DNA from: Paraglomus brasilianum
Lineage: Eukaryota
Assembly: GCA_910592345.1 (NCBI GenBank)
Contig: CAJVPI010000295.1
Coordinates: forward strand, 1 to 36,308
Reading direction: 5' to 3'
DNA length: 36,308 nucleotides
The translations under genes were made by a program, and so were the position numbers. The notes under the pieces are model-generated. The model made no database searches. It saw only the letters and a list, made by a program, of their open reading frames with translations, and was not told the DNA's origin. Numbering within the stretch: position 1 is the first letter of the stretch; every line of letters begins with the position of its first letter. Shown piece after piece: positions 35,548 through 36,308 of the stretch.

Positions 35548-36308
35548 GAATGAATGCATCTACTGTTAAACAGTAGATAAAATTATAAAACGTTACTTCT
35601 TTTTAAACAGCCAAGTTCCAGGTAGCCTCATCTATGCAGGTCTTTTTAAACCATTTTTATGGGAAAAAAAATGGTGTTACCGCTCCCTCCCTGCACTCCC
35701 ATGCTTTTTTAGTAAAGCAACCGAAGACTCCCTAGCTGTTTTAATCAGTAGTAACGACGGGCGGTGTGTACAAAGGGCAGTGACATGTTCAGCATGATCT
35801 AGCATAGTAGCTCATGTTTACTAAAGAGCCTTATTGATAAAGCATAAAAGATATTGTAGATGTGAAGGACTAATACCAGTCAAACAAGCTAAAGTGAGGA
35901 ATAGATTCAGCGTTAACACCTCATCAGTGTAGCACAAATTCAGCCCAATAAACTTTCAGTAACAGAGTTTGAACGTTCACAGCAGGCCGTCCACCGTACG
36001 CCAGGGCTGGATACCTGACTGGCAACTTTCGCAAGCTGCGGCCACGATGCGCTTTCAATTCCCTCTGATTTACACCTACAGCCATCGTCCAAAAGTCTGG
36101 CAACATCTGTGCAGCATCACACATCATCTATAAACTCACATAACTAATTGACCTTATCAATCCCTACATCAATCTCTTACTCTAACTTTATCACATAGTC
36201 CCAAAATATCTACAGAGCTTTACAGACTTGCCATAGCCTCATTCTTCCTCCAGTCATTTATTTTATTCAGACTGGCAGTCCATACACTTGGAGAGGCTGC
36301 TGTAAGAA
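35548..36308 (-). rRNA. Extremely diverged nuclear 18S rRNA-like sequence (3' major and 3' minor domains; continues past the window end)
   Basis: Exact eukaryote-type CTGCCCTTTGTACACACCGCCCGTC (35780-35756); collinear anchors GGACT..GGAAG..GAGGC..GTCTGT..TAGAT, GCTACACTGA, TAGTAA, AACTTGG..TTTA..GAAGTA, terminal hairpin and TCATT, in canonical order. Confidence 0.85.

Follow-up and report, generated by a model that had tools for sequence, protein, structure and literature searches.

Copies of a ribosomal RNA gene normally stay functional or else decay. In Plasmodium falciparum, a variant large-subunit rRNA, LSU_F, is transcribed, assembled and repressive, according to the accessible part of the report (bioRxiv 10.64898/2026.06.17.732804), and this large-subunit case is the one functional precedent found in the accessible texts. 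Arbuscular mycorrhizal (AM) fungi have few, dispersed and heterogeneous rDNA copies, including probable rDNA pseudogenes, as the available portion of another text describes (10.64898/2026.01.14.699541). The element described here bears on whether such divergent copies do anything.

The window analysed (positions 1-36,308) is one whole contig of the AM fungus Paraglomus brasilianum. A preliminary description had claimed, for positions 35548-36308 of the minus strand, an 18S-like RNA whose helices are kept by compensatory change. The homology is borne out: this is an 18S-derived 3' part, running from the 3' strand of h34 to the 18S 3' end. The contig end cuts the element, leaving it open there; the part present is the last 761 nt of the window. 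An nhmmer profile of 19 eukaryotic 18S fragments matches 35800-35723 at E 4.8e-13; a second match to the same profile, at 36251-36200, is weak (E 0.74) but collinear. A comparison with the Rfam model RF01960, also proposed earlier, gave a weak match at 36308-36200 (E 0.072, 15.7 bits) that stays below the gathering score of 50.

Identity to three fungal-type 18S references is about 70% (72-73%) over five alignable segments, which were picked by hand with gaps uncounted and the value for reference L054 left out as an anchor artefact. The element retains 154 of 261 invariant 18S columns (about 59%), a low estimate, as the h44 tip is misaligned in that alignment. Its helices stand in the order of SSU rRNA (h34, h40, h41, h43, h44, h45), and it shares both sequence homology and helix order with eukaryotic 18S rRNA. 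Among prokaryotic reference genomes, at least 40 contigs (L045-L084) hold eukaryotic 18S rDNA, which is contamination; L080 and L081 have apparent insertions inside h45.

The host genes nearby include a kinase, P450s, a phosphoesterase and retroelement relics, with a Pfam match in 7 of 12 proteins. The element had been called embedded among ordinary genes. Such genes do share its contig, but the claim is weaker than it was put, because the element lies at the contig end and a multi-copy repeat separates it from them. The gene nearest to it (32392-33276, minus strand) is a frame of 294 aa, open from stop to stop, that contains hydrophobic stretches and matches nothing in Pfam. Further away are a tyrosine-kinase-like kinase gene with unassigned upstream exons (29179-31710, minus) and two close P450 paralogues (21867-23776 and 27067-28852, plus), between which lies a decayed chromodomain LTR retrotransposon (24548-26328, minus). 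A family of helical proteins is represented by four paralogues in tandem on the minus strand (9478-10209, 12528-13328, 15070-15780 and 18210-18923); the two that were scanned have no Pfam family above cut-off.

The homologue search that had been proposed for this element found one. It is L027, an independent soil metagenome contig of 1145 bp, in which the 18S-like part is likewise followed by the trailer and then the ribozyme. L027 is the sole true homologue among 43 pattern matches, and the remaining 42 metagenome matches are due to chance. Relative to the window it reaches 49 nt further upstream and lacks 56 nt, covering h41 and half of one arm of a predicted rod.

Three of the helices claimed earlier lie where they had been placed. 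In h40 (36247-36278, minus strand, as for all parts of the element), 7 of 8 reference pairs are retained around a 14-nt A/U loop, and 36275-70/36255-50 pair with an ensemble probability of 0.92. The lower stem of h44 (35591-35754) keeps 11 of 11 pairs, with an ensemble probability of 0.93 for 35740-31/35615-06; the helix has lost 8-9 nt and its tip is about 50 nt longer. In h45 (35557-35579) both strands are rewritten with 8 of 8 pairs kept, forming 10 bp (35579-70/35566-57, ensemble probability 0.93), and the canonical tetraloop and CCG motif are lost.

Other helices stand less firmly. The 3' strand of h34 (36222-36233) pairs with a 5' strand seen solely in L027, where the two form an unbroken 12-bp helix from which the reference bulges and CCG motif are gone. 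This helix comes to -18.8 kcal/mol vs -10.2 for the reference, over windows of unequal extent. The assignment of its 5' strand rests on pairing and position, since the L027 extension has no sequence alignment with reference upstream strands (933 of 1000 shuffles are equally good). The 5' strand of h28 may lie at the extreme end of L027, which is a guess.

A base stem can be drawn for h41, as claimed, in a shortened stub (35892-35926), yet it is missing from the ensemble, where the rod out-competes it, and it is dispensable, lying inside the 56-nt deletion of L027. The weakest helix is h43 (35792-35817): 5 of 7 pairs are present and the loop is 5 nt longer, but the pairing probability is 0.14-0.27 when folded alone, and the changes are largely of CpG type. 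A stem at the h44 tip exists too (9 bp, 35675-67/35658-50), but it has five A on its 3' side where six had been reported, and the ensemble favours the register 35691-83/35669-61.

One segment has not diverged at all. Between h43 and h44, positions 35755-35780 hold the 3' strand of h28 and the 5' strand of the h44 top as 26 consecutive invariant columns, all intact; 2 of 20000 permutations did as well, on an alignment that is wrong in the h44 tip. The segment retains three CpGs, and the perfect 1390-1407 stretch noticed earlier, with its CpGs, is borne out.

Its pairing partner is the part that has gone. The 8-9 nt absent between the lower stem of h44 and h45 correspond to the 3' strand of the decoding site. 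Two alignments are almost equally short: in one the 1492-1500 strand is lost, in the other the 1483-1490 strand is lost together with two transversions. Under either, the surviving strand pairs one helix lower, with 35756-35750 (probability 0.98), and the 1400-1408 strand is left unpartnered (E. coli numbering). The intact decoding site that a functional 18S has at the top of h44 is therefore missing, and so are the h45 tetraloop and the CCG motifs of h45 and h34. CCG is an acetylation motif, according to the accessible text of PMC9670809. No 5.8S was found in 34500-36308 at E<=1, so the usual succession of ITS1 and 5.8S is lacking there.

With the decoding strand, the h45 loop and the h34 bulges gone, the element as assembled cannot decode. 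Throughout, helices have been preserved or perfected, and it is the functional irregularities that have disappeared.

The preliminary description had named CpG decay as the null explanation for such covariation. To simulate this null, substitutions in the number observed were introduced into the helices of the references, with a transition bias, an AT bias and CpG rates of up to x30. The references were 18S sequences other than the host's own; registers were set by hand, one deleted base was allowed in h44, and h42 and the h44 top were unscored. Counted against the full fungal references L058 and L077, the element has 5 broken pairs among 48 canonical ones and 15-16 that changed on both sides; simulated neutral or CpG decay gives 15-21 broken pairs and 4-7 double changes. 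Neither observed value was attained in any of 1000 runs, for three models and both references. The outcome was the same with L049, and with L081, which is without h45, 1 run in 1000 did so at worst.

When h41 and the upper h44, whose register is ambiguous, are omitted, 3 of 33 pairs are broken and 11 are double changes; even with the CpG rate raised to x100, this reduced set yields the broken count in 25-34 of 2000 runs and the double-change count in 1-3 of 2000. Six of the double changes (two each in h43, h44 and h45, those in h43 being what CpG decay gives) affect pairs that 13-14 of 14 references have fixed, which places these changes beyond ordinary rRNA variation. Three reference G-U pairs have turned Watson-Crick. 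The helices are compensated beyond what CpG decay gives, and the pair loss expected of a neutral pseudogene under independent substitution and CpG decay is not seen.

The loss of CpG is local to the element. Positions 1-33000 have an observed/expected CpG ratio of 1.0, and the repeat has 1.25; the 18S-derived parts, by comparison, have 0-0.45 and the trailer 0.27, with the core of the 18S-like part (3 CpG) and the G+C-rich part of an insertion (8 CpG) as exceptions. Such depletion, expected of a neutral rDNA pseudogene, is typical of a copy that is methylated and decaying. Methylation-type decay probably acted on the element and the pairing outlasted it.

Several features were absent from the preliminary description, namely the cut at the contig end, the deletion of the decoding strand, an HDV-like ribozyme and a 250-nt insertion between h34 and h41 (35950-36199), flanked by a 5-nt direct repeat. 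Part of the insertion supplies the 5' arm (36113-36193) of a predicted rod, antisense to 35920-35835, with 66 bp in ten stacked helices that take in the 3' strand of h42. The antisense alignment score was matched by 4 of 2000 shuffles. The predicted pairing comprises 65 Watson-Crick, 15 G-U and 4 A-C pairs (G-U excess p 0.02), and the duplex comes to -72 vs -40 kcal/mol, with none of 500 controls as stable. Folding z is -3.2 on the sense strand and -0.4 on the opposite strand; among 21 control windows of 300 nt, the minus strand went no lower than -2.1, and the plus strand reached -3.2 once. The G-U excess and the strand asymmetry indicate a signal at the RNA level and specific to one strand.

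The remainder of the insertion is a G+C-rich core (35950-36084) with 53% GC, 8 CpG and a GNRA hairpin at 36039-36022. Known sources for the insertion did not hold. A 28S origin was matched at best by 19 of 300 shuffles, for one of five references, and a profile search gave no match. A second 18S copy reached p 0.01 in one of 16 tests, and a 5.8S origin is unsupported. As for a group I or spliceosomal intron, Rfam has no match at E<=10 and the ends fail to restore an 18S exon.

Template switching between inverted repeats can repair stems at the DNA level. A neutral pseudogene could thus have had its stems restored by this process together with CpG decay, a process that lies outside the simulated models. 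The core of h40 and h45 are short, almost pure Watson-Crick hairpins of the kind this would yield, the changes in h43 are explicable by CpG decay, and the rod itself probably arose as an inverted duplication. Against this stand the rod's G-U excess and strand asymmetry, the retention of the long-range helices h34 and h44, and a divergence below that of the trailer, so that this origin is very unlikely. The earlier proposal of a structurally selected rRNA paralogue is instead backed by the rejected CpG null, the preponderance of G-U over A-C pairs in the rod (15 vs 4) and the existence of L027.

In the place of ITS1, the 18S-like part is followed by a 288-nt trailer (35260-35547) with a closing stem (35525-35512/35280-35266). 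The trailer folds well alone (z -2.7; z -0.17 with the ribozyme attached). A perfect 27-nt tandem duplication within it (35406-35459) is single in L027.

The predicted HDV-like ribozyme (35188-35259) begins 288 nt downstream of the 18S-like part, with a predicted cut at 35260/35259. It scores 47 bits against RF02682 (gathering score 44) and has P1, P1.1, P2, P3, P4, U20-G25 and C75. P1 forms with a probability of 0.78-0.94 across five upstream contexts; P1.1 (a C-G plus an A-U), U20-G25 and C75 were identified by inspection. The roles of P1.1, G25 and C75 in HDV-like ribozymes are treated in the available part of PMC13635239. The +1 base here is C, which is tolerated in active L1TcRz as far as the accessible text of PMC3185411 goes. 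A search of viral contigs for this ribozyme gave no match, and searches of the open-access literature turned up no HDV ribozyme described from AM fungi.

The closing stem of the trailer ends six bases ahead of the predicted cut, and L027 has a copy of the ribozyme in common with the window. Cleavage would therefore be expected to fix the 3' end of the 18S-like transcript.

The ribozyme stands at the head of a repeat whose body (34019-35187) contains 51-54-nt subrepeats. A partial second ribozyme start, its first 17 nt, occurs at 34792-34808 on the minus strand, 451 nt downstream of the first. In run X1, many variant contigs cover 34019-35259, and joints lead from 35247-35259 back into the repeat; upstream sequence differs between copies, and depth gives no copy number. 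The minus strand of 34019-35259 thus reads as a multi-copy, partly tandem, non-coding, ribozyme-headed repeat of about 1.2 kb, which is retrozyme- or SINE-like. In another X1 contig, which runs over the 18S-like 3' end, three listed bases differ from the window and two indels occur, all within about 25 nt; this points to a second copy or variant of this end.

The 18S-derived domain might accordingly be a selfish passenger of the HDV-headed repeat family, of no benefit to the fungus, its fold being kept for RNA stability or for a nucleolar mimicry that aids transcription and re-insertion. The adjoining multi-copy repeat with its tandem joints fits such a passenger, as do the 3' end variants in X1, of which there are at least two. 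HDV ribozymes also head retroelements such as L1Tc/NARTc, as the accessible part of PMC3185411 describes. However, the downstream ribozyme would sever the 18S-like RNA from the repeat, other repeat copies have different upstream sequence in the form of loose ends, and neither an ORF nor a poly(A) tail nor a target duplication was seen. A selfish origin is unlikely on balance.

Other sequence runs give a few further observations. The RNA run X19 contains 0.09 of the words, and none of its contigs is placed on 33500-35747, where a filter may drop contigs. X20, tentatively taken as RNA, contributes a single 167-nt contig that spans the ribozyme cut site at a depth of 2.8. Soil and rhizosphere runs have word shares of 0.18-0.47 among those listed.

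L027 is a single full homologue, too close for covariation. Between it and the window, differences number 18 of 704 (2.6%) in the 18S-like part and 17 of 258 (6.6%) in the trailer (p 0.006, one sequence pair), so the divergence of the element does not equal that of its flanking spacer, as it would in a neutral pseudogene. The ribozyme differs at 6 of 72 positions. There are no differences in the 109 positions of 36308-36200 or in the 37 of the core. Taken together, 18S-type helices and core have 0 of 143 changes vs 18 of 561 elsewhere (p 0.03, for sets chosen post hoc). Predicted stems contain 9 of the 18 recent substitutions, and a pair is disrupted by 5 of the 9; stems are hit at the chance rate, without stem/loop bias (p 1.0), which argues against selection on the predicted fold.

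The main rival explanation is that of a recently dead relic, in which a variant rRNA or derived RNA diverged for long under structural selection and has since been silenced as a pseudogene. The 26-nt segment would then have survived through a late loss of constraint or a short gene conversion from normal rDNA. The CpG depletion local to the element and the 56-nt deletion of L027, together with its five pair-breaking changes, favour this, and like the lack of stem/loop bias they speak against a present function. AM fungi also have few, divergent rDNA copies, some probably pseudogenes, in the portion of 10.64898/2026.01.14.699541 available. Against a recent death stand a divergence slower than the trailer's and the absence of changes in helices and core. 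In addition, helices have been perfected where the ribosome needs irregularity, which implies that selection outlasted translation. The relic is somewhat unlikely, though it deserves serious weight.

The same homologue bears on whether the assembly is chimeric, or whether the element serves as functional rRNA in a contaminant or parasite that has diverged extremely. The contig ends here, and its join to host genes runs through the repeat and is spanned by no listed piece. L027, however, independently joins the 18S-like part, trailer and ribozyme, and the ribozyme repeat is a family within X1. The h44 signature is of fungal type, and a working rRNA cannot be without the decoding strand. These readings are hardly credible.

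The element is real, and it is neither a plain pseudogene nor a working rRNA. It has an 18S origin, compensated helices, a loss of decoding, the same unit in L027 and a slower divergence than its trailer. The preferred reading, with a probability of about 45%, is that of a structure-selected, non-translating RNA from a dispersed 18S paralogue, presumably transcribed and, more tentatively, serving as a small-subunit decoy. By analogy it is best read as the small-subunit counterpart of the repressive LSU_F of Plasmodium.

Under the decoy reading, a dispersed Paraglomus rDNA paralogue would have left translation and stayed under selection for an 18S-like fold. It would have gained rod-like expansions, the rod being an expansion segment of a fold built on the 18S scaffold. 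It would be transcribed as a structured RNA, and cleavage by the HDV-like ribozyme would set its 3' end, replacing the processing of ITS1 and 5.8S.

The sole perfectly held segment is the one whose partner is deleted, which points to a contact in trans. More speculatively, the unpartnered 26-nt segment may be a working surface for biogenesis factors or guide RNAs, or it may form a trans pairing with the top of h44 in normal 18S. Such a contact could damp translation or the making of 40S subunits, dormant spores being one possible setting. The full picture, in which a second, decoding-dead SSU RNA is released by a borrowed HDV-like ribozyme, folds into a 40S-like particle and throttles ribosome production or translation through its bared universal strand, is unlikely as a whole. 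If true, this would be the first case of 18S rRNA giving rise to a ribosome-derived regulatory RNP.

A fold that is kept while the decoding centre is discarded offers a path by which an rRNA may gain a new job. Surveys are affected as well: a sequence of 70% identity that retains an intact universal segment of primer type could be mistaken for an unknown deep eukaryote lineage.

Open-access text, with subscription journals and supplements lying outside it, yielded no description of the 18S-like element. The genome paper of Paraglomus occultum (PMC9453076) has nothing on divergent rDNA in 12 of its 17 text places, and the accessible part of PMC9835108 has none of the relevant terms. New here are the 250-nt insertion with its predicted G-U-rich rod and, beyond the 288-nt trailer, the HDV-like ribozyme at the head of a multi-copy repeat.

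The element resembles the SSU rRNA of RF01960 in the order and pairing of its helices and in the invariant 26-nt segment. It differs in its score (15.7 vs 50 bits), the deleted decoding strand, the 250-nt insertion and the lack of a 5.8S downstream. Like the dispersed rDNA copies of AM fungi, in so far as the accessible text covers them, it is a non-tandem rDNA paralogue; unlike those described there, it has about 30% divergence in its alignable parts, and compensated helices.

The ribozyme shares with L1TcRz/RF02682 (PMC3185411, in its accessible part) the double-pseudoknot elements, C75, G25, a C at +1 and a place at the head of a repeat. Unlike L1TcRz, it is a candidate by sequence, its P1.1 is a C-G plus an A-U, and the repeat it heads is non-coding, about 1.2 kb long and without an ORF.

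LSU_F, as far as its report is accessible, is a large-subunit rRNA shown to be expressed, whereas the element is small-subunit, fungal and known from sequence alone, and what it loses are the decoding strand and the h45 motifs. Like LSU_F, however, it is a separately evolving rRNA paralogue with large expansions, in which the fold is kept and the functional centre disrupted, as in a repressive variant rRNA.
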